Origin: Bifidobacterium longum subsp. longum JCM 1217
GTDB taxonomy: Bacteria; Actinomycetota; Actinomycetes; Actinomycetales; Bifidobacteriaceae
DNA length: 32,000 nt
Reading direction: 5' to 3'
Assembly (NCBI RefSeq): GCF_000196555.1
Contig: NC_015067.1
Span: 2,340,001-2,372,000 of the forward strand
Below are positions 15,154-22,732 of the stretch, piece after piece. The translations under genes and the position numbers were made by a program. Numbering within the stretch: position 1 is the stretch's first letter; each line of letters opens with the position of its first letter. Under the pieces are notes generated by a model. That model had not been told where the DNA came from, ran no database searches, and saw nothing but the letters and a program-made list of their open reading frames with translations.

Positions 15154-15416
15154 GCGGACACCGTGGCGGCGGCGCGGTTGTCGGCGGCCACCTGCTGGGC
15201 GACTTCGCGAATCAGGTCGGGGCGGTAGCCGGTCCAGGAGTTGTCCGGCGTGATGACCACCGGAGCCTGCTGGAAACCGGCGGCCTGCAGCTGCTCAAGG
15301 GTGGAGGGGTTCTGCGTCAGGTCCACGGTTTCAAACGGCACACCCAGCTTGGTGAGCTGGCGCTTGGTGGCATCGCACTGCGGGCAATGCGGCTTGGTGA
15401 ACACGGTGACGGTCAT
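15150..15416 (-). CDS. nrdH: Glutaredoxin-like electron donor for class Ib RNR
   Basis: The product is [21 protein letters not shown]..., with a CPQC redox motif. The ATG at 15416 is preceded by AAGGGGAG at 6 nt. The track start at 15464 adds 16 unlikely residues. Confidence 0.9.
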
Positions 15417-15462
15417 GGCGACTCCCCTTGATGTGGTTCTGATGAACAGTGAAGCGAAGGCC

Positions 15463-15490
15463 ATATTACAGCGGTGTGATTTGAAATCAA
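15463..15490 (-). promoter_or_regulatory. Putative sigma-70-type promoter of nrdHIEF
   Basis: The minus strand reads TTGATT (complement of 15485-15490), a 16-nt spacer, then TAATAT (complement of 15463-15468). This is about 45 nt upstream of the nrdH ATG. Confidence 0.45.
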
Positions 15491-15492
15491 GG

Positions 15493-15506
15493 CACTATAT
15501 GTAGTG
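15493..15506. promoter_or_regulatory. NrdR box 1 (candidate)
   Basis: cactatatgtagtg is 12 of 14 palindromic. It fits the NrdR-box pattern (CAC-w-AT-AT-AT-w-GTG) as I remember it and abuts the -35. Confidence 0.55.
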
Positions 15507-15525
15507 GCGCGTGTCACATAACAAA

Positions 15526-15539
15526 CCTAGATATAGGGT
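15526..15539. promoter_or_regulatory. NrdR box 2 (candidate, weaker)
   Basis: cctagatatagggt lies within the near-palindrome aacctagatatagggtt. Its centre is 33 bp from box 1, about three helical turns, which is the usual tandem arrangement. Confidence 0.4.
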
Positions 15540-15679
15540 TTTTCATTGATATTCCGCCATTCCCATGCACCCCCGAAAATCGGCGTGCAGCGACCCGCCC
15601 AATCACATGTGGCATTGTTCACATTTGCGTTTGAACCGCTCTTCGACTGATCCTCAACCGCCCTGCAACCGCCATCTTG

Positions 15680-15872
15680 AGTTTCGAGGGGCTGTTTTGA
15701 CCCTTTCCGGAGATCTATCTCCGTTTCGAGGGGCTGGTACTCAAGTAAGCGCATCCCCAAAATGGCGGAATGACGGTGGGGCGAAGCCGTTTATACCCGT
15801 GTTCTAGCGGGCCACCAGCCCCTCGAAACGGGAGTAAACCTCTACGGAAGGCCAAATCAGCCCCTCGAAGCG
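15680..15872. repeat. About 195-bp imperfect palindrome carrying four copies of TTTCGAGGGGCTG (2 direct, 2 inverted)
   Basis: The motif occurs at 15682-15694 and 15724-15736 and, inverted, at 15817-15829 and 15858-15870 (the last with 1 mismatch). The left arm 15680-15738 aligns with the reverse complement of 15814-15872 over about 57-60 bp at roughly 85 percent by eye. The spacer is 75 bp. Confidence 0.75.
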
Positions 15873-15909
15873 GAGAACGGATACCTCGGCACCCCGTGTG
15901 GAGCCAGAA

Positions 15910-15947
15910 GGCCCGGCCGGATGTCCAAACGAGCATCCGGCCAGGCC
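15910..15947 (-). terminator. Stem-loop downstream of the HTH gene (probable terminator, weak T tract)
   Basis: ggcccggccggatg (15910-15923) pairs with catccggccaggcc (15934-15947) at 13 of 14 bp with a 10-nt loop. On the minus strand it is followed by TTCT only. Confidence 0.45.
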
Positions 15948-16003
15948 TTAAAAGTAGTTGTTCAGTTATCAGAATCGATGCGGCGCGATACTACTCCGCG
16001 TCT

Positions 16004-16654
16004 TTACGGCTCCAACAGATCTTCGATGCGGCAGCCAAGCGTGCGGGCCAAAGCGAGCACGGTGGAGACGGCAGCTTTGCCAAGGTCTTTGCGGCGCTGC
16101 TCGTACATTTGGATGGAGCGCAGGGTAACGCCGGAGCGGCGGGCCAGCCCGGATTGGCTGAGTCCGGCGCGCACGCGGATCGTGTGCAGCCGGGAGTCGC
16201 CCTCGGTGCGATTATGGGCGGCCCGCTCGTCGTACACGTCGACGAATCGGCTTTCGTCGGCTTCGTGCAAAGCCGGGTAAAGTCGCACGATATCGCCGAG
16301 CGACAGCACATCGAGAATGTCCGAGAACCGCACTCCCCTGGCCCATTGGCAGTATGCGAGTACCCATCCGGCCCAGTATTCGGGTGTTGAGCCGGCGCGC
16401 AGTGCGGCTGGCGGCATATCGAGAATGCGCGCCCAACCGGTTTGCCGCATGATTTCGGCCACCAGCTCCTCGCCGGACATGCCACACACGTATTTGGGCG
16501 TGCCTCGCCCGAAAAGCGCGGCCGCCTCGGAGGTGGCGAAGAAGTCCATGAATAGGCCGACCGGCAACCCGCAATCGTTCAGCGCATAATCGAAGGCGCC
16601 GGCCAAGTTGGCCATGGCGTCCGGCAAGTATGTCTCATCGTAGGCGGTGATCAT
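16004..16654 (-). CDS. Two-domain protein: N-terminal DUF3791-like region plus C-terminal XRE-family helix-turn-helix
   Basis: 216 aa. The C-terminus LHTIRVRAGLSQSGLARRSGVTLRSIQMYEQRRKDLGKAAVSTVLALARTLGCRIEDLL is a classic Cro/C1 HTH. The ATG lies inside the last codons of the upstream gene, a 20-nt overlap. Confidence 0.8.
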   Translation of the reverse strand: MITAYDETYLPDAMANLAGAFDYALNDCGLPVGLFMDFFATSEAAALFGRGTPKYVCGMSGEELVAEIMRQTGWARILDMPPAALRAGSTPEYWAGWVLAYCQWARGVRFSDILDVLSLGDIVRLYPALHEADESRFVDVYDERAAHNRTEGDSRLHTIRVRAGLSQSGLARRSGVTLRSIQMYEQRRKDLGKAAVSTVLALARTLGCRIEDLLEP

Positions 16655-17318
16655 CGTTGGTCACTTTCTCACGGATGATGTCGCGCATGAACAGGCCGTC
16701 GAGATCGGCTTCAGCGCTGTTGCGACGGTAAGCTTCACGAGCCGTGCGGTCGCGCTCGTTGCGCAATACGTGGTAGGTCGAAGCGCGGGCGATTTCGCAG
16801 CCTTGGAACCGCAGCGCCGCGAATGCCTGAGGACTGGTGAGTACGATCTGCTTGCCGAGCTCACCCAACCGCATCGCCTCGGCGAGTTGGTCGAGGGAAA
16901 TCGCGTTATTGACAAAAGCGCGGGCGAACGAGAAATACGAATCGTCGGCACGATATCCGACGATGACGTCAGACTGACTGGTATCCGGCAGAGACACTTG
17001 TTTCAGATATTCGATGCCTTGCGCGGCGACGGTGGTGGTCGGCTGGAAACGACGGTTTTCGACCAGCAGGGCCAACCAGTTCAGGATGGTGTAGGGCAAC
17101 TGGGACAGGTCCAGGAAGGTGAGCCCGTTGGTGGCCAATGTGTACCGATTCGCGAAACCGTCATCCAGTCCCGCGCACGCCCATTCCTTGGCCAGCTCGA
17201 CGCTGCGCGTGCAATAGAATCCGCGGCCATAATCGTTGTTCGGCTTGACCAGCCCGTATTCAGGATGCTTGATGACATGCGAAGAGCCATGCCACAGTTC
17301 GATCGATGCGGTCTCCAT
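16635..17318 (-). CDS. DUF3990-like protein (possible ADP-ribosyltransferase-fold enzyme)
   Basis: 227 aa starting METASIELWHGSSHVIKHPEYGLVKPNNDYGRGFYCTRSVELAKEWA. It shows the WHGS and GxGFY signatures. A strong SD GAAGGAG precedes the ATG. Confidence 0.75.
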   Translation of the reverse strand: METASIELWHGSSHVIKHPEYGLVKPNNDYGRGFYCTRSVELAKEWACAGLDDGFANRYTLATNGLTFLDLSQLPYTILNWLALLVENRRFQPTTTVAAQGIEYLKQVSLPDTSQSDVIVGYRADDSYFSFARAFVNNAISLDQLAEAMRLGELGKQIVLTSPQAFAALRFQGCEIARASTYHVLRNERDRTAREAYRRNSAEADLDGLFMRDIIREKVTNDDHRLR

Positions 17319-17354
17319 TGGCCGGCTCCTTCTCTCTCTCCTTACATATTCTTG

Positions 17355-17374
17355 ATTATATCACTGTGGTGATA
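17355..17374 (-). promoter_or_regulatory. Extended -10 promoter (TGaTATAAT) of the DUF3990 operon, overlapped by a 6-4-6 palindrome
   Basis: The minus strand reads gTGaTATAATcaag, where TATAAT is the complement of 17355-17360. The palindrome is tatcac-tgtg-gtgata (17359-17364 with 17369-17374). The start codon is at 17318. Confidence 0.5.
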
Positions 17375-17408
17375 GTCATAAGGGAAATACGAGATGAAAA
17401 ATACCGCT

Positions 17409-17450
17409 GTATACGTTCGTACACAACGTGAAATGTATACGAACGTATAC
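17409..17450. promoter_or_regulatory. 17-bp inverted repeat with 8-bp spacer in the divergent DUF3990 / K+ channel intergenic region (candidate operator)
   Basis: gtatacgttcgtacaca (17409-17425) pairs with tgtgtatacgaacgtatac-type arm 17434-17450 at 16 of 17 positions. It is AT-rich with no T tract, so it does not look like a terminator. Confidence 0.5.
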
Positions 17451-17479
17451 AACACTGATGTCCGGAGTCATGCTCCGCA

Positions 17480-18280
17480 GTGGCGCAGCGGACGCGCCAC
17501 TGCAATCGGAATATGGGACTGAAGACGTGGAAGAAGTGGACGGACTGGCCGCTGATGGTGCTGTCCGTGGTGTTTCTGGTGGTGTATTCGTGGGAAATTC
17601 TCTCCCGCACGCATATCGCGCTGTGTGAAACCGTCATCAACGTGATCTGGGTGGTGTTCGTCGTCGATTATGTGGTCTCGCTGTGGTTGGCCGACGATCG
17701 CTGGCGGTGGTTCAAGCACAACCTGTTCACGCTGCTGACCATCGCGCTGCCGATGCTCCGGCCCTTGCGACTGTTGCGTTTGCTGACCGTGCTGCACGTG
17801 CTGAACCGCACCTCCGGCATGGCGGTGCGCGGGCGCATCACCGTATACGCGGTCGGCGCGGTGGGAATGCTCATGTACGTGGGCGCGCTGGCCGTGTATT
17901 CCGTGGAGCGCGGGGCGTCCGGATCCACGATCACCGACTTCGGCACGGCGTTGTGGTGGGCGTTCGTGACCGTGACCACCGTGGGATATGGCGACTTCTC
18001 GCCGGTCACCTTCCAAGGCAAGATCATTGCGGTGGTGCTGATGTTCACCGGCATCGCGTTGATCGGTATTGTGACGGCCACGCTGGCCTCGTGGATCGTG
18101 GATCAGGTCAATCTGGAGACGGATCGGCGCGAGGACGCTCGGGAGAAGGAAGTGGCCAAGGAAGCCGCGCAAGAGGCTATTGCGACATCAGCCAATCCCG
18201 AAATCGACCTATTGCGCGAGGAAGTGCGTGAGCTGACCGCTACGGTAGCCGGTCTGCGCACCGAACTTGAGCGACGTTGA
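17480..18280 (+). CDS. Voltage-gated-type (6-TM) potassium channel
   Basis: It has the selectivity filter TVGYGD and an S4-like LRPLRLLRLLTVLHVLNR, with hydrophobic S1-S6 segments and a charged coiled C-terminal tail. The start is uncertain (GTG 17480 or ATG 17513). Confidence 0.88.
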   Translation: MAQRTRHCNRNMGLKTWKKWTDWPLMVLSVVFLVVYSWEILSRTHIALCETVINVIWVVFVVDYVVSLWLADDRWRWFKHNLFTLLTIALPMLRPLRLLRLLTVLHVLNRTSGMAVRGRITVYAVGAVGMLMYVGALAVYSVERGASGSTITDFGTALWWAFVTVTTVGYGDFSPVTFQGKIIAVVLMFTGIALIGIVTATLASWIVDQVNLETDRREDAREKEVAKEAAQEAIATSANPEIDLLREEVRELTATVAGLRTELERR

Positions 18281-18297
18281 TTGGCGAAGCGGGACAA

Positions 18298-18362
18298 ACA
18301 ACGATTCTGCCAAGAAGGTCCGCGTCAGTTGTTGTCACCGCGGATTGCGGCAGAATCATTGT
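18298..18362 (+). terminator. Nested hairpin downstream of the K+ channel gene (probable terminator)
   Basis: acaacgattctgcc (18298-18311) pairs with ggcagaatcattgt (18349-18362) at 13 of 14 bp. An inner tccgcg/cgcgga stem is present. TTTTCTTC follows about 10 nt later. Confidence 0.35.
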
Positions 18363-18398
18363 CGCCACGGCTGTTTTCTTCAGTCGGCTCAACCCAAC

Positions 18399-18444
18399 TT
18401 TTGATAATTTTTATTTTTTTGATATTTTTGATAATTTTTATTTT
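18399..18444 (+). repeat. Extremely AT-rich 27-bp tandem direct repeat (2 copies of TTTTGATAATTTTTATTTT; TTTGATA occurs 3 times)
   Basis: The copies are 18399-18417 and 18426-18444. A possible promoter is TTGATA (18401-18406), a 16-nt spacer, then TATTTT (18423-18428). It sits 28 nt upstream of the ATPase ATG and its GAGGAGG SD. Confidence 0.85.
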
Positions 18445-18472
18445 AGGTTGATTCAGCGAGGAGGCGGTCCAC

Positions 18473-19579
18473 ATGAAGGCAAAGGAAAACCCATTCAAGC
18501 CAACGGCAGGAGGGGAACCGCCCCTGCTCATCGGCCGAGGCAAAGTTATCCGCGATTTCGAGAAAGGTCTCGATAACGGAGTCGGTGCCCCAGGGCGCAT
18601 TATGCTCGTCACCGGCGCTCGTGGAACCGGAAAAACCGTGATGCTCACTGTGTTCGGAGACCGGGCCAAAGCGCGCAGATGGGATGTCATCGAAGAAACG
18701 GCCTCTGCCGGACTATGCGAACGCCTTGTTGATGCCTTACGAACCGGGCGAGGGGCCCTTGACCACCTCACTATCCGACCATCGTTGACTTTTGCTGGAG
18801 CGGGCATCGGCCTCGGAGAAGCCGAACTATCCCCGAAGCGTATGCCCGAAACGTTGAGAAGTGCCATTGCCGGACGGTTGGATGCGCTTGAGAAGCGCCA
18901 TGCTGGGTTGCTTATCACCATTGATGAGACTCAAGCGGCTGAGCGATCCGACATGATTGCCATCGCCACTGCCATACAGCATCAAATCAGGGAACGACGC
19001 AATATCGCCATCGTGTTCGCCGGTCTCCCACAGATGATTTCTGATTTGTTCAATGACGAAGTCATCACGTTCCTACGTCGCGCGAAAACGAACATACTCA
19101 CAGATATTCCTCTTGATGAAGTGCGCGATGCTTTCGCCACAACATTCCGCGCCTCCGGCATGTCCATCACCGACGCTCAATTAAGCACTGCAGCCAATGT
19201 GACAGCCGGATACCCCTATATGATTCAACTGGTTGGCTACCATATCTGGGATGCCGCAGACATGCGGGACTCGGATACCATCATCGACGCTGATGTTACG
19301 GCAGGTATCGAGGAAGCACGTATTGACCTTGATAACGCCGTGTGCATCCCGGAGTTGCAAGGCTTATCCAAAAACGACCGTGAGTATCTCGAAGCCATGG
19401 CAGCGTCAGATGGTCCCTCTCCCACCGTGAATGTTGCACAGCGCATGGGCAAAACGCCTAACTATGCCGCCACCTACCGCAAACGCCTCCTTGACGCCTT
19501 CGTTATCCGCGAAACAGAACGAGGCGAAGTCGATTTTGCCGTGCCCTTCCTGCGCGAATACTTGCGTCGGAATCAGTAA
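18473..19579 (+). CDS. Orphan AAA+ ATPase (Orc1/Cdc6-like or STAND-like N-terminus) with a C-terminal winged-helix domain
   Basis: 368 aa starting NPFKPTAGGEPPLLIGRGKVIRDFEKGL...LVTGARGTGKTVML (Walker A), with Walker B LLITIDE. The C-terminal LSKNDREYLEAMAASDGPSPTVNVAQRMGKTPNYAATYRKRLLDAFVI looks like a wHTH. It has many A/T-ending codons relative to its neighbours. Confidence 0.8.
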   Translation: MKAKENPFKPTAGGEPPLLIGRGKVIRDFEKGLDNGVGAPGRIMLVTGARGTGKTVMLTVFGDRAKARRWDVIEETASAGLCERLVDALRTGRGALDHLTIRPSLTFAGAGIGLGEAELSPKRMPETLRSAIAGRLDALEKRHAGLLITIDETQAAERSDMIAIATAIQHQIRERRNIAIVFAGLPQMISDLFNDEVITFLRRAKTNILTDIPLDEVRDAFATTFRASGMSITDAQLSTAANVTAGYPYMIQLVGYHIWDAADMRDSDTIIDADVTAGIEEARIDLDNAVCIPELQGLSKNDREYLEAMAASDGPSPTVNVAQRMGKTPNYAATYRKRLLDAFVIRETERGEVDFAVPFLREYLRRNQ

Positions 19580-20491: not shown

Positions 20492-22732
20492 ATGCACCAG
20501 CAAGGCATTAGGATGGAGGGCATGAGCGATTTGAACGCGTTGAATCTTGAGCCCGGCGAAGTGGTTGGTGGGTATACGCTGATCTCCCGGCTCGGCTCAG
20601 GAGCTATGGGGTCGGTGTGGCGGGTGCGCGACGACGGCGGCACCACCTATGCCATGAAGATTCTGCGCGACTCCCTGACCGACGAGTCAGTGGCAGGCTC
20701 CGGCTCTGCGTCCACGGCCCTGCACGACCCCGACCTCAAGCCCGATGTCACGCCGCGCGAGCGCCTGCGGCGCGAGGCCATGGCCTTGAAGAAGATCAAT
20801 CATCCGGGTGTGTGCGGCATCGTGGATATGGAACTCGACGATACGTTGGCGTTCATCGTCACTGAACTCATCGAGGGCAAGAATCTTAAGGATGATGTGG
20901 CCGCCAATGGCCGGTATGTGGGCGACGATCTGGAACGCTTGGCCCGCAAGCTCATCGAAGCCACCAAAGCCGTACATGCGGCCGGCATCGTCCATCGCGA
21001 CATCAAACCCACCAATGTGATGGTGTCGGCCGCCGGACCGGTATTGGTCGATTTCGGTATCGCGATGGGCGAGGGCGAAAGTCACGTGACCCGCACCGGC
21101 CTAGTGATGGGTACACCCGGATTCATCGCACCCGAGATTATTGACGGTGCCGAATCCGACGACGCCACCGATTGGTGGTCGGTGGCGTCCGTGCTCGCTT
21201 TTGCCGCAACCGGCGCGCCTGTGTTCGGCACCAAGCCGATGATGGCGGTACTTGAGCGCGAGGCCTCGGGCAACGCGAATCTTTCCGGACTACCGGCCGG
21301 CACATTGGCTGCCTTCCGTTCTGCACTGGACCCGGATCGCAGGGATCGTTGCACGCCGGATCAATTGCTGAATGCCATCGCCTTGGATGCGTTGAATCCC
21401 AACGCTTGGCAGGGCGAGCAGGCGGGACCGTTCGCCGCGGGAGCCGTGGCTGGACAACCGGCTGCGATCGTTGCCGAAGCCGCGGAGGCGATGCCCCCTT
21501 TTGGCGCGGCCGGCGGCGTTGACCGCAATAATCCCCGAACCATCTGGCGCGCGGCCGAGGAAGCCGCTGAGGCTCCCACCATGGCCGTGTTCTCCGGCAA
21601 TAAGGGCGATAACGGCGATGGCGAAACCGCCGTATTCTCGCCGGCTGGCGCCGCTACCGCCACGCTGCCCTTAGCCGATATGCCGCCACGTCCGCCGGCC
21701 GGTGCGGAGCAGGCCACGCAACTGTTGCCCGACGCTGCTGCCGATTTCACCGACGACGCCGGCACGCAGGTACTCACCGGCGCGACCACACCGATGCCGG
21801 ACCAAACCACGCCGCTGGCCGAGCGCACCACCGTACTCCCCACGCCGCAGCCGTCATCATTCCCCCCGTCCGGCACCGCCCAGAGCAGCTGGGATCCCGC
21901 AAGCAACCAGCCCACAGCGGTGGACCCCGCCATTCGCCCGGCATTGCAGCGCATCATCGACCAAACCGCCCAAGCGGCCCCCACCGAAACCATGGTCCAA
22001 AATCCTCCCATGCCCAATCCGGTGGACGTGAAGCGAGGGGAATATCTGCAGCGCGGCACCCTGCCATTGATCCTGCTGGCGGCGCCGCTGGCGGCACTGG
22101 CGGCAAATGCTCCGCTCGTGGCCATCATCGCGGCCACTGCGTTGTTGTGGCTACTGCTCACCCTGGCCTATAACACCGAACCCCAGCTTGAGCGCGAGGG
22201 CAAACGCGGCGGCGAGCGCAAAAACTCCGATTCGTGGATTCGCGTGGCGACTTTTCCTTGGCATCTGGTCAAAGCCCTGCTGCTGGCCATTCCCCGCATA
22301 CTGCTGCTAGTCATCATCTATATGGCGGGAACCGCCGTGGCCACCGCGGCTCTGGCACTGCCCGTTCACACCATCTCCTGGTATTTCACCGCGGATTGGG
22401 GTATTCCGGTGCCGTTGCTCAATGATGTGCCGTTCTCCGCTTCCGGGCTGGCGCTGGGCGGTTTCATGGCCATCGGCTGGCTGGTCACTGTGTTCGCCCC
22501 ACAGTCGATGATGATTCGGCTGGGGGGCGGCGTACTGCGCGGGCTCAAACACAGTCGCCCGGCGGGCGCCCCATCCACCGAAGTGGGTGGGGCTCCACCT
22601 GCTCCAGTGGCGCCGGCGCCCAAGGGCGGCGGGCGCGGCACCGTGCTGTTCACCATATGGGCCATCATCACCGTGGCCTTGTGCGCGATGCCGATTCTGG
22701 GCATGCCGATCAACTGGATGCCGTTCGCCTAG
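20492..22732 (+). CDS. Hanks-type Ser/Thr protein kinase with a Pro/Ala/Thr-rich linker and a multi-pass membrane C-terminus
   Basis: 746 aa with LGSGAMGSVW, YAMK, HRDIKPTNVMV, DFGIA and GTPGFIAPE. There are several hydrophobic segments after about residue 520 and no PASTA repeats. ATGs at 20513 and 20522 are alternative starts. Confidence 0.9.
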   Translation: MHQQGIRMEGMSDLNALNLEPGEVVGGYTLISRLGSGAMGSVWRVRDDGGTTYAMKILRDSLTDESVAGSGSASTALHDPDLKPDVTPRERLRREAMALKKINHPGVCGIVDMELDDTLAFIVTELIEGKNLKDDVAANGRYVGDDLERLARKLIEATKAVHAAGIVHRDIKPTNVMVSAAGPVLVDFGIAMGEGESHVTRTGLVMGTPGFIAPEIIDGAESDDATDWWSVASVLAFAATGAPVFGTKPMMAVLEREASGNANLSGLPAGTLAAFRSALDPDRRDRCTPDQLLNAIALDALNPNAWQGEQAGPFAAGAVAGQPAAIVAEAAEAMPPFGAAGGVDRNNPRTIWRAAEEAAEAPTMAVFSGNKGDNGDGETAVFSPAGAATATLPLADMPPRPPAGAEQATQLLPDAAADFTDDAGTQVLTGATTPMPDQTTPLAERTTVLPTPQPSSFPPSGTAQSSWDPASNQPTAVDPAIRPALQRIIDQTAQAAPTETMVQNPPMPNPVDVKRGEYLQRGTLPLILLAAPLAALAANAPLVAIIAATALLWLLLTLAYNTEPQLEREGKRGGERKNSDSWIRVATFPWHLVKALLLAIPRILLLVIIYMAGTAVATAALALPVHTISWYFTADWGIPVPLLNDVPFSASGLALGGFMAIGWLVTVFAPQSMMIRLGGGVLRGLKHSRPAGAPSTEVGGAPPAPVAPAPKGGGRGTVLFTIWAIITVALCAMPILGMPINWMPFA

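Follow-up and report, generated by a model that had tools for sequence, protein, structure and literature searches.

The DNA analyzed here is a 32,000-nucleotide stretch of the genome of Bifidobacterium longum subsp. longum JCM 1217 (contig NC_015067.1, positions 2,340,001 to 2,372,000), which we call the window. Within it two overlapping genes lie on the minus strand, the first encoding a protein of the family DUF3990 and the second a partner that ends in a helix-turn-helix (HTH) domain (Table 1). An earlier reading of these letters made without database searches (the sequence-only reading) had proposed that the two genes form a toxin–antitoxin (TA) or conflict module whose first product resembles ADP-ribosyltransferases (ARTs), and the open reading frames (ORFs), strands, lengths, and 20-nt overlap that it gave are exact. 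The main new result of our analysis is the position of a palindromic candidate operator over the promoter of the pair, together with the covariation of this operator and the recognition helix of the partner. Translation of the partner is probably coupled to that of the DUF3990 gene through the overlap. A hairpin beyond the partner gene is the probable operon terminator, a call that is tentative because no run of T follows the hairpin.

Table 1. Coordinates of the gene pair and its features in the window.
Feature	Position	Strand	Basis and remarks
DUF3990 gene (227 aa)	16635–17318	−	ORF list; putative ART-fold effector/toxin
Partner gene (216 aa)	16004–16654	−	ORF list; putative neutralizer and repressor
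DUF3990 stop/partner start overlap, 20 nt	16635–16654	−	ORF list and sequence; out-of-frame
His10 codon	17289–17291	−	LWHGS motif, end of β1; invariant; proposed NAD+-binding/catalytic His
Tyr35 codon	17214–17216	−	GxGFYxT motif, on β2; invariant; secondary structure from AlphaFold2 (AF2) model
Trp46 codon	17181–17183	−	11 residues after Tyr35; invariant
Asp117 codon	16968–16970	−	Directly before β5 (residues 118–122); invariant; candidate catalytic acid
Partner N-terminal all-helical domain, residues ~1–140	16235–16654	−	AF2 model; PADLOC PDC-M42B
XRE/Cro-C1-type HTH, residues 155–213	16016–16192	−	Pfam and Foldseek; recognition helix ...LRSIQMYEQ...
Ribosome-binding site AAGGAG	17326–17331	−	Sequence; 7 nt 5' of the DUF3990-gene ATG
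Extended −10 element TGaTATAAT of the operon	17355–17363	−	Sequence and homologues
Candidate operator, TATCAC-CACA-GTGATA, 16 bp	17359–17374	.	Perfect 6-N4-6 palindrome; overlaps −10 box
Stem-loop, 18-nt arms (TGTATACG..CGTATACA type), then GGTATTTTTC on minus strand	17406–17453	−	
Hairpin, 16-nt arms	15908–15949	−	55 nt past the partner stop codon; candidate operon terminator

The first protein matches Pfam DUF3990 (PF13151) with an E value of 2.1e-40 and 138.3 bits against a cut-off of 32.2, over residues 7–171 and profile positions 2–152 of 152, which confirms the family signature named in the sequence-only reading. It begins with METASIELWHGS (His10), followed by GRGFYCT (Tyr35) and ELAKEWA (Trp46), so that the ELWHGS, GRGFYCT, and AKEWA motifs named in that reading are all found. 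Its further belief that Pfam groups DUF3990 with the ARTs is borne out (PMC7955679), and the PARP1 motifs that it quoted for comparison, LLWHGS...GKGIYFA, are exact when checked against the Protein Data Bank (PDB). The LWHGS of the His10 motif is the same as in PARP1, and the spacing of 11 residues from Tyr35 to Trp46 equals that from GIY to the second Tyr in the PARP1 fragment GKGIYFADMVSKSANY, again checked against the PDB. The family is large: the query matched over 7,800 clusters (90% identity).

Because a profile search of PDB sequences with DUF3990 found no relative, we predicted the structure with AF2 from an alignment of 32 sequences (pLDDT 89.7, pTM 0.85). When this model was compared with the PDB using Foldseek, nearly all of the 50 matches listed were H-Y-E ARTs; the best was PARP1 (E 2.6e-3, probability 0.97–0.98), and the others included PARP2, PARP4, the catalytic domain of diphtheria toxin, tankyrase, and the TASOR pseudo-PARP. 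In the viral library BFVD, the top match was an unnamed 202-aa protein (E 5e-8), followed by ART-PolyVal, “NAD(+) ADP-ribosyltransferase,” and viral PARP-like proteins with E values of 2e-4 to 1e-2. ART-PolyVal is also the only second family to recur by sequence, with weak Pfam matches in 5 of the 32 DUF3990 members (best E 0.006). ART-fold similarity is thus found in two structure libraries and, weakly, by sequence; the structural scores from the model are modest yet uniformly point to an ART fold.

Residues H10, G11, S12, G33, Y35, T37, W46, Y59, W81, R89, D117, G121, D126, and Q157 are invariant in DUF3990 proteins down to 25% identity, in a comparison that took in plasmid-borne forms of ~160 aa. 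In the model, D117 appears to hold the position of the catalytic Glu of H-Y-E ARTs. Because H10, Y35, and D117 are invariant, and because D117 stands directly before β5, where H-Y-E enzymes carry Glu, we read the putative active site as an H10-Y35-D117 triad, with W46 as the likely second aromatic residue. Residues ~172–227 form an Arg-rich helical C-terminal extension that is specific to the subfamily and absent from the short plasmid forms. In Serratia, DUF3990 is the C-terminal toxin domain of Rhs5, whose immunity gene lies downstream (PMC4524185).

In the partner, the sequence-only reading had seen a Cro/C1-type HTH, and this assignment is confirmed both by Pfam (HTH_3 at E 3.8e-7 and 30.5 bits against a cut-off of 23, with HTH_31 and HTH_26 also above their cut-offs) and by structure, the domain resembling 434 Cro, P22 C2, SinR, and HipB at an rmsd of 1.1–2.4 Å in Foldseek. 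A profile search of PDB sequences with the partner returned HTH proteins only. The AF2 model of the partner (pLDDT 92.4) is confident and all-helical from residue 1 to ~145. An exhaustive profile search collected 1901 representatives of this N-terminal domain in two sizes, ~215 aa with the HTH and ~150 aa without it, and among 112 representatives clustered at 50% identity the residues A4, Y5, G58, S60, G61, E63, W94, G96, Q103, W104, H130, and E131 are near-invariant; F110 and Y126 are further near-invariant residues of the domain.

The same reading had also described this N-terminal region as DUF3791-like, and here it does not hold. A Pfam scan of the partner gave no DUF3791 (PF12668) match at E ≤ 1. 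Genuine DUF3791 proteins from Bacteroides and Clostridium served as the comparison set: alignment with hhalign of the 34- and 112-sequence partner profiles to a 16-sequence DUF3791 alignment gave E values of 0.36 and 0.15, covering only a short Y-x-x-L-H-x-x-D stretch, and neither hhalign against a single DUF3791 protein nor a local HMM search was significant. Because all five tests were non-significant, we have dropped the label. Sub-threshold DUF3791 matches occur in 4 of the 112 diverse relatives (best E 0.0035 in the Pfam scan), and a very remote kinship is possible.

A scan of one genome per species yielded 80 loci at 50–79% identity, from Bifidobacterium, Collinsella, many Clostridia, Parasutterella, Oxalobacter, Treponema, Prevotellaceae, and others. 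In all 79 assessable loci, across five phyla (Actinomycetota, Bacillota, Pseudomonadota, Spirochaetota, and Bacteroidota), the next gene after DUF3990 is the partner, and 65 of 73 loci, again in five phyla, have an overlap of exactly 20 nt. In all, tblastn confirmed 588 candidate stretches carrying a DUF3990 gene with the partner. The pair is frequent in Collinsella and Clostridia, and its two small adjacent genes occur together in every assessable locus, as expected of a type II TA system. Both genes are under purifying selection, hence functional, with dN/dS of 0.15 for the DUF3990 gene and 0.22 for the partner between the window and Bifidobacterium rousetti.

Within the species, comparison of the window with loci L093–L102 gives a dS of ~0.09–0.10 for the DUF3990 gene versus ~0.013 for the adjacent partner, and protein databases hold many hybrid or frameshifted variants of the pair (for example, P0020, P0024, P0044, P0169, and P0194). 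This pattern suggests recombination inside the pair and occasional inactivation, with assembly errors as an alternative. One locus, L071, carries at 446–1583 a second, divergent DUF3990 gene (238 aa) followed by a 142-aa HTH-less homologue of the partner N-terminal domain (hhalign probability 95%), the two being embedded in remnants of a PD-(D/E)XK/AAA-like gene; because this second pair is on the same contig, two related cassettes lie within 8 kb there.

The promoter region of the pair carries the evidence for autoregulation. In the window, the operon promoter probably lies at the extended −10 element, and the last TA of the palindrome at 17359–17374 is the first TA of the −10 box; the predicted partner-binding operator DNA is TATCACCACAGTGATA. 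The −35 element is degenerate in the window, and a scan for consensus promoters found no full −35/−10 promoter. A perfect TTGACA stands at the equivalent position in Firmicutes homologues, and upstream of the Clostridial homologues the arrangement is TTGACA-AAC-TATCAC-N4-GTGATATAAT, the palindrome filling the spacer of a textbook promoter.

This placement recurs in other phyla. Across 71 unique upstream regions, counts that shared descent inflates, a TAxxxx-N4-xxxxTA palindrome with at most one mismatch is present within 100 nt upstream in 67, compared with 7% of shuffled controls; two copies, at a modal spacing of 27 nt, are present in 28, compared with 0.4% of shuffles, and in 37 regions the palindrome runs into a TATAAT-like hexamer. 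The half-site differs by lineage and covaries with the recognition helix of the partner HTH, although shared descent inflates these counts as well: partners with R-S-x-Q-M go with TATCAC, those with R-T-L-Q-Q with TACTTC or TACGCC, those with R-M-I-Q-Q with TAACTC, and those with x-I-Q-L with TATCGC or TATCAA. Members of the R-S-x-Q-M/TATCAC class are found in both Bifidobacterium and Clostridia, two groups with no other relationship in their upstream DNA. Such a pattern is expected if the partner represses its own operon, and it lends that idea strong indirect support. Because the palindrome lies over the −10 box, because its position is conserved across phyla, and because it covaries with the recognition helix, we predict that the HTH regulates its own operon.

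The sequence-only reading had spoken of operator-like palindromes over the promoter. These are real and non-random, and the TATCAC palindrome does lie over the −10 box; the more conspicuous repeat at 17406–17453 is likelier a terminator. There, a 20-pair stem is followed by a T-run in the operon direction, and each arm taken alone comes close to being a palindrome (TGTATACG-NN-CGTATACA). In 18 of 18 B. longum-type loci the repeat keeps a constant distance to the pair, and it stays with the pair in a strain (L100) in which a co-oriented GH3 gene lies upstream; other taxa lack it. We considered its palindromes as operators for the HTH and rejected them: they form a stem with a T-run and are confined to B. 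longum-type loci, while the TATCAC type is conserved elsewhere. Given the stem and T-run, the retention beside the co-oriented GH3 gene, and the absence from every other taxon, the element is most likely an intrinsic terminator or an insulator upstream of the operon, and if a terminator then probably that of an ancestral upstream GH3 gene; a binding site for a second regulator is possible. An Rfam scan of 15300–17700 found no RNA element.

Outside B. longum-type genomes, the pair behaves as mobile cargo spread across phyla. We surveyed 143 neighbors in 27 distinct contexts. In one prophage the pair lies between TerL and the portal gene, and in Christensenella it lies just after TerL; in another context it stands beside a type I HsdR, and in yet another between a ResIII restriction enzyme and an OLD/TOPRIM ABC-ATPase. 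The most frequent neighbor families are AAA_21 (6), ResIII (4), DUF4143/AAA_14, which corresponds to PDC-S01 (3), TerL (2), and DNA methylases (2); two Septu- or Gabija-like neighbors, glycosidases, and ABC transporters were also seen. Homologues concentrated in housekeeping contexts would have spoken against a conflict module; they are not so concentrated and are found in prophages, beside restriction and ABC-ATPase genes of defense type, and on plasmids. TerL stands beside the pair in only two context groups of a jackhmmer search with prophage genes.

Short DUF3990 forms occur on 78 plasmid records, including small Clostridium botulinum plasmids and pBF9343. On pBF9343 and on C. botulinum pCLI, a DUF3791 gene precedes the DUF3990 gene with a 4-nt overlap, beside a zeta-toxin gene or a replication gene. 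The remark of the earlier reading that DUF3791 is the usual companion of DUF3990 is therefore true of these short plasmid genes. On pCLI (L092, 2774–3709), a 75-aa gene 3' of DUF3990 is similar to the N-terminal half of the DUF3791 protein of Bacteroides (149 aa; L091, 2555–3004, pBF9343), with which it shares the motif TKLWY...LY.ELE.EK, and a 74-aa gene upstream of DUF3990 matches the C-terminal half of that protein, as if a single protein had been split or permuted around the DUF3990 gene. We also compared the third small gene of the plasmid systems with the C-terminal extension of the B. longum DUF3990 protein as a possible equivalent and found no resemblance.

In the window, the pair is flanked by nrdH-nrdI-nrdE on one side and by an ion-channel gene, an AAA_16 ATPase gene, and a Ser/Thr kinase gene on the other. 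It is present in all 8 places with an identical DUF3990 protein and in all 10 listed places with an identical NrdI, always between nrdH and a variable segment, such that only the flanks vary. The accessory context that had been proposed thus applies to the flanks but not to the pair, which is a fixed locus in B. longum-type genomes. The ion-channel (Ion_trans_2) and AAA_16 genes (17480–19579, plus strand) form a two-gene cassette of lower GC content (0.51–0.54), which in some strains (L100) is replaced by an intact GH3 glycosidase gene; strains bearing the cassette retain only a 122-aa GH3 fragment (L003). The cassette may be an inserted accessory module of its own. PADLOC has no match for either the ATPase or the channel; for the ATPase there is a weak match to phrog_6841. 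The annotated start of the ion-channel gene coincides with a perfect, GC-rich 10-nt inverted repeat at 17477–17503 (GCAGTGGCGC-N7-GCGCCACTGC), which could form a hairpin in the 5' leader if translation in fact begins at the ATG at 17513. The Ser/Thr kinase (20492–22732, plus strand) gives strong PADLOC matches to PD-T4-6 kinase models (E 3e-49); because the kinase is conserved and syntenic across Bifidobacterium loci, this is probably generic kinase-domain similarity. Between the pair and nrdH, at 15681–15876, lies a complex inverted repeat with 56-nt arms of 77% complementarity and four copies of GTTTCGAGGGGCTG, suggestive of an intergenic element of MITE or REP type; strain L093 has a GH3 gene in the interval that separates the pair from nrdH.

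Taken together, we consider it somewhat probable (roughly 0.6) that the pair is an autorepressed, TA-like conflict module with an ART-fold effector and an HTH-bearing partner. In such a module, the DUF3990 enzyme would use NAD+ to ADP-ribosylate an essential macromolecule, or would simply consume NAD+, and thereby arrest growth. By analogy with the H-Y-[EDQ] toxins Tre23 and DarT, we would favor a nucleic acid as the target. The partner, translated by coupling through the conserved 20-nt overlap, would neutralize the enzyme through its N-terminal helical domain, either by binding it or by reversing its product, and its C-terminal HTH, presumably as a dimer, would bind TATCAC-N4-GTGATA over the −10 box and repress the operon. 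Loss or titration of the partner, through phage infection, loss of the element, or proteolysis, would then free the enzyme, in a role that could be phage defense or addiction.

Several observations weigh against this interpretation. The structural matches of DUF3990 are marginal, with TM-scores of 0.30–0.36 and a best PDB E value of 2.6e-3, and the third residue of the triad is Asp rather than Glu, its equivalence being drawn from the position before β5 and not from superposition. For the partner N-terminal domain, neither Pfam nor the PDB offers a relative, and the 50 Foldseek matches listed cover only the HTH; the neutralizing role proposed for this domain is drawn from context, and invariant polar residues as numerous as those of the domain would be unusual in an antitoxin that simply binds. 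Unlike most type II systems, the pair has its putative toxin gene first and a C-terminal HTH. The loci are phylogenetically non-independent, ~30 of them being Collinsella, and the neighbor counts are per protein and without a matched control. DUF3990 has no PHROG family and matches in only 6 of 50,697 phage records, and because of these two results and the two TerL context groups, the pair is not mainly a phage gene. In the window, PADLOC does not recognize the immediate neighbors as defense genes, and the fixed position beside nrdHIEF in B. longum-type genomes would also fit a domesticated, non-conflict function. Finally, we found no experiment on any DUF3990 protein in the searchable literature.

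Four alternatives were considered. The main variant retains the same module and its repressing HTH but makes the partner an antitoxin with enzymatic activity, like DarG or NADAR, which would remove the ADP-ribose mark or destroy the product of the ART. The N-terminal domain is indeed unusually conserved for a binding antitoxin, with 12 residues near-invariant across the 112 representatives, a stand-alone HTH-less form of ~150 aa exists (for example, beside the second DUF3990 gene in L071), and the toxin-first order is that of DarTG. But the domain is small (~140 aa) and all-helical, with no recognized metal- or nucleotide-binding motif, and it has no sequence or structure match to macrodomain, ARH, or NADAR folds, its PDB matches being to HTH proteins only, so that we regard this variant as unlikely, although worth keeping in mind. 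The main true rival is of another kind: DUF3990 could be a non-toxic NAD+-dependent modifying or repair enzyme, acting, for instance, in Tpt1-like removal of RNA 2'-phosphates or in regulatory ADP-ribosylation, with the partner as its dedicated ligand-sensing transcription factor. The locus in B. longum-type genomes fits this idea, as it is fixed there, syntenic in B. rousetti, and has nrdHIEF and a Ser/Thr kinase gene as neighbors; purifying selection acts on both genes of the pair, and ligand-sensing domains are common in XRE regulators. The wider distribution does not fit. The pair has spread horizontally across five phyla at 50–60% identity, its positions include that of a moron between the TerL and portal genes and others next to restriction or ABC-ATPase genes, DUF3990 serves as the tip of an Rhs toxin and sits on small plasmids beside other TA genes, and the strictly conserved 20-nt overlap is typical of stoichiometric pairs. 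We therefore judge a non-toxic role to be quite improbable.

Two further possibilities concern the effector. Its closest relatives outside DUF3990 are ART-PolyVal domains, and some copies of the pair lie in the structural-gene region of prophages, which would suit an offensive or counter-defense factor that modifies host or rival targets as a mobile element enters, as ART-PolyVal of phage polyvalent proteins or T4 Alt and Mod do, with the chromosomal copies as remnants. Such a role seems very unlikely, as most of the 27 contexts are not prophages (TerL in two context groups, no PHROG family, few phage records), no phage genes flank the B. longum locus, and a dedicated predicted autorepressor whose operator covers the −10 box is in keeping with a self-contained cassette that stays silent in its host. 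Alternatively, the replacement of the canonical Glu by Asp, and the presence of TASOR among the structural matches, could mean that DUF3990 is a catalytically dead pseudo-PARP that binds NAD+, ADP-ribose, or nucleic acid as a sensor or scaffold. The full signature of the NAD+ site is, however, invariant across very divergent members, and H-Y-[EDQ] toxins with Asp are active, as exemplified by Tre23 (PMC8661411), making this the least credible of the explanations considered.

If the pair is a TA-like conflict module, as we favor, a bolder extension may be entertained, although we hold it only tentatively and think it more apt to be wrong than right: that this is a new, widespread abortive-infection or addiction family of gut bacteria, in which an H-Y-D ART acts on RNA or DNA and the partner N-terminal domain is a novel antagonist of ADP-ribosylation, either an enzymatic eraser or an active-site plug. 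Were this so, a family-specific operator code, read by the same partner protein, would let many orthogonal copies coexist, and the B. longum genome would hold the module as a fixed component. In itself, the pairing of an ART toxin with an HTH antidote comes as no surprise. Yet ADP-ribosylating toxins with antidotes (DarTG, RES-Xre, CmdTAC, and Tre23) have reportedly each revealed a new target or chemistry, and if the N-terminal domain does erase or inhibit ADP-ribosylation, it would be a new fold for the job. In gut commensals, the activity of the pair may also matter for resistance to phages or for how stably mobile DNA is kept. The locus offers a compact entry point to these questions, with three candidate catalytic residues, a separable partner domain, and a 16-bp operator with a predicted recognition code.

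Among the closest known systems, one is itself a candidate. PDC-M42 was proposed as a phage-defense system by “guilt-by-embedding,” being embedded in BREX, DISARM, or type I restriction–modification loci, and is listed as three families, FAM_00403>>FAM_03189>>FAM_00360 (Payne et al. 2024 bioRxiv). The DUF3990 protein matches the PADLOC model PDC-M42A (E 1.9e-37), and the N-terminal domain of the partner matches PDC-M42B, weakly (E 1.4e-6). The B. longum-type system differs in having two genes and no third, its B-like domain being fused to an XRE HTH, which may replace the third PDC-M42 gene by fusion. The match is a candidate label and not a mechanism. It qualifies the statement of the sequence-only reading that no function had been shown for the pair: this stands in that the searchable literature holds no DUF3990 experiment, but the pair already matches a defense candidate.

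The DUF3791–DUF3990 pairs of pBF9343 and pCLI share with the B. longum pair the DUF3990 core, with identical invariant residues. Both kinds are small operons with tightly overlapping genes, carried on mobile DNA near replication genes or other TA genes. The plasmid pairs differ in order and in parts. In the plasmid pairs DUF3791 comes first, with the 4-nt overlap, whereas in B. longum DUF3990 comes first; the plasmid DUF3990 proteins (~160 aa) lack the C-terminal extension, their partners lack the HTH, and a third small gene follows.

RES-Xre modules such as ParST and MbcTA combine an NAD+-using toxin of the ART superfamily with an XRE-type HTH antitoxin in an autoregulated two-gene operon; the antitoxin gene comes first, and its product has an N-terminal HTH and a DUF2384-type toxin-binding domain. 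The B. longum pair would share the putative ART-superfamily toxin and the XRE-type HTH partner in a two-gene operon, but Pfam finds no RES domain, the triad reads H-Y-D rather than R-E-S, the toxin gene is first, and the HTH is C-terminal. DarTG is likewise a toxin-first two-gene module with a toxin of the H-Y-E clade, implicated in phage defense, which the B. longum pair would putatively resemble, but neither Pfam nor PADLOC finds a DarT (DUF4433) or macrodomain match here, and the HTH of the partner has no counterpart in DarG. The core of the conflict-module reading survives the checks of fold and context, but its likening to DarTG does not extend to the components.

In Tre23, a Photorhabdus Rhs toxin (ART-HYD1) of the H-Y-[EDQ] clade, a clade whose definition allows Asp as the acidic residue, H8 and Y33 are both needed for toxicity, and a cognate downstream protein, Tri23, neutralizes it (PMC8661411). 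The spacing of 25 residues from His to Tyr is the same in both proteins (H8/Y33 and H10/Y35). Tre23 differs in being a secreted type VI secretion effector rather than part of a cytoplasmic cassette, and its family, PF15633, has no match here; its target, helix 44 of 23S rRNA, is not transferable by analogy to DUF3990. By structure (BFVD E 2e-4 to 9e-4) and weak sequence matches, ART-PolyVal (PF18760) is the nearest family outside DUF3990, but it forms part of giant multi-domain proteins that are delivered together with incoming DNA, whereas DUF3990 is stand-alone, with a dedicated putative repressor as its partner. By analogy, then, the pair may work like RES-Xre or DarTG modules while being a member of neither: it has no RES, DarT, or macrodomain, its putative toxin gene comes first, and its HTH is C-terminal. 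Judged by its sequence matches, it appears to correspond to a two-gene, fused form of the PADLOC candidate PDC-M42.

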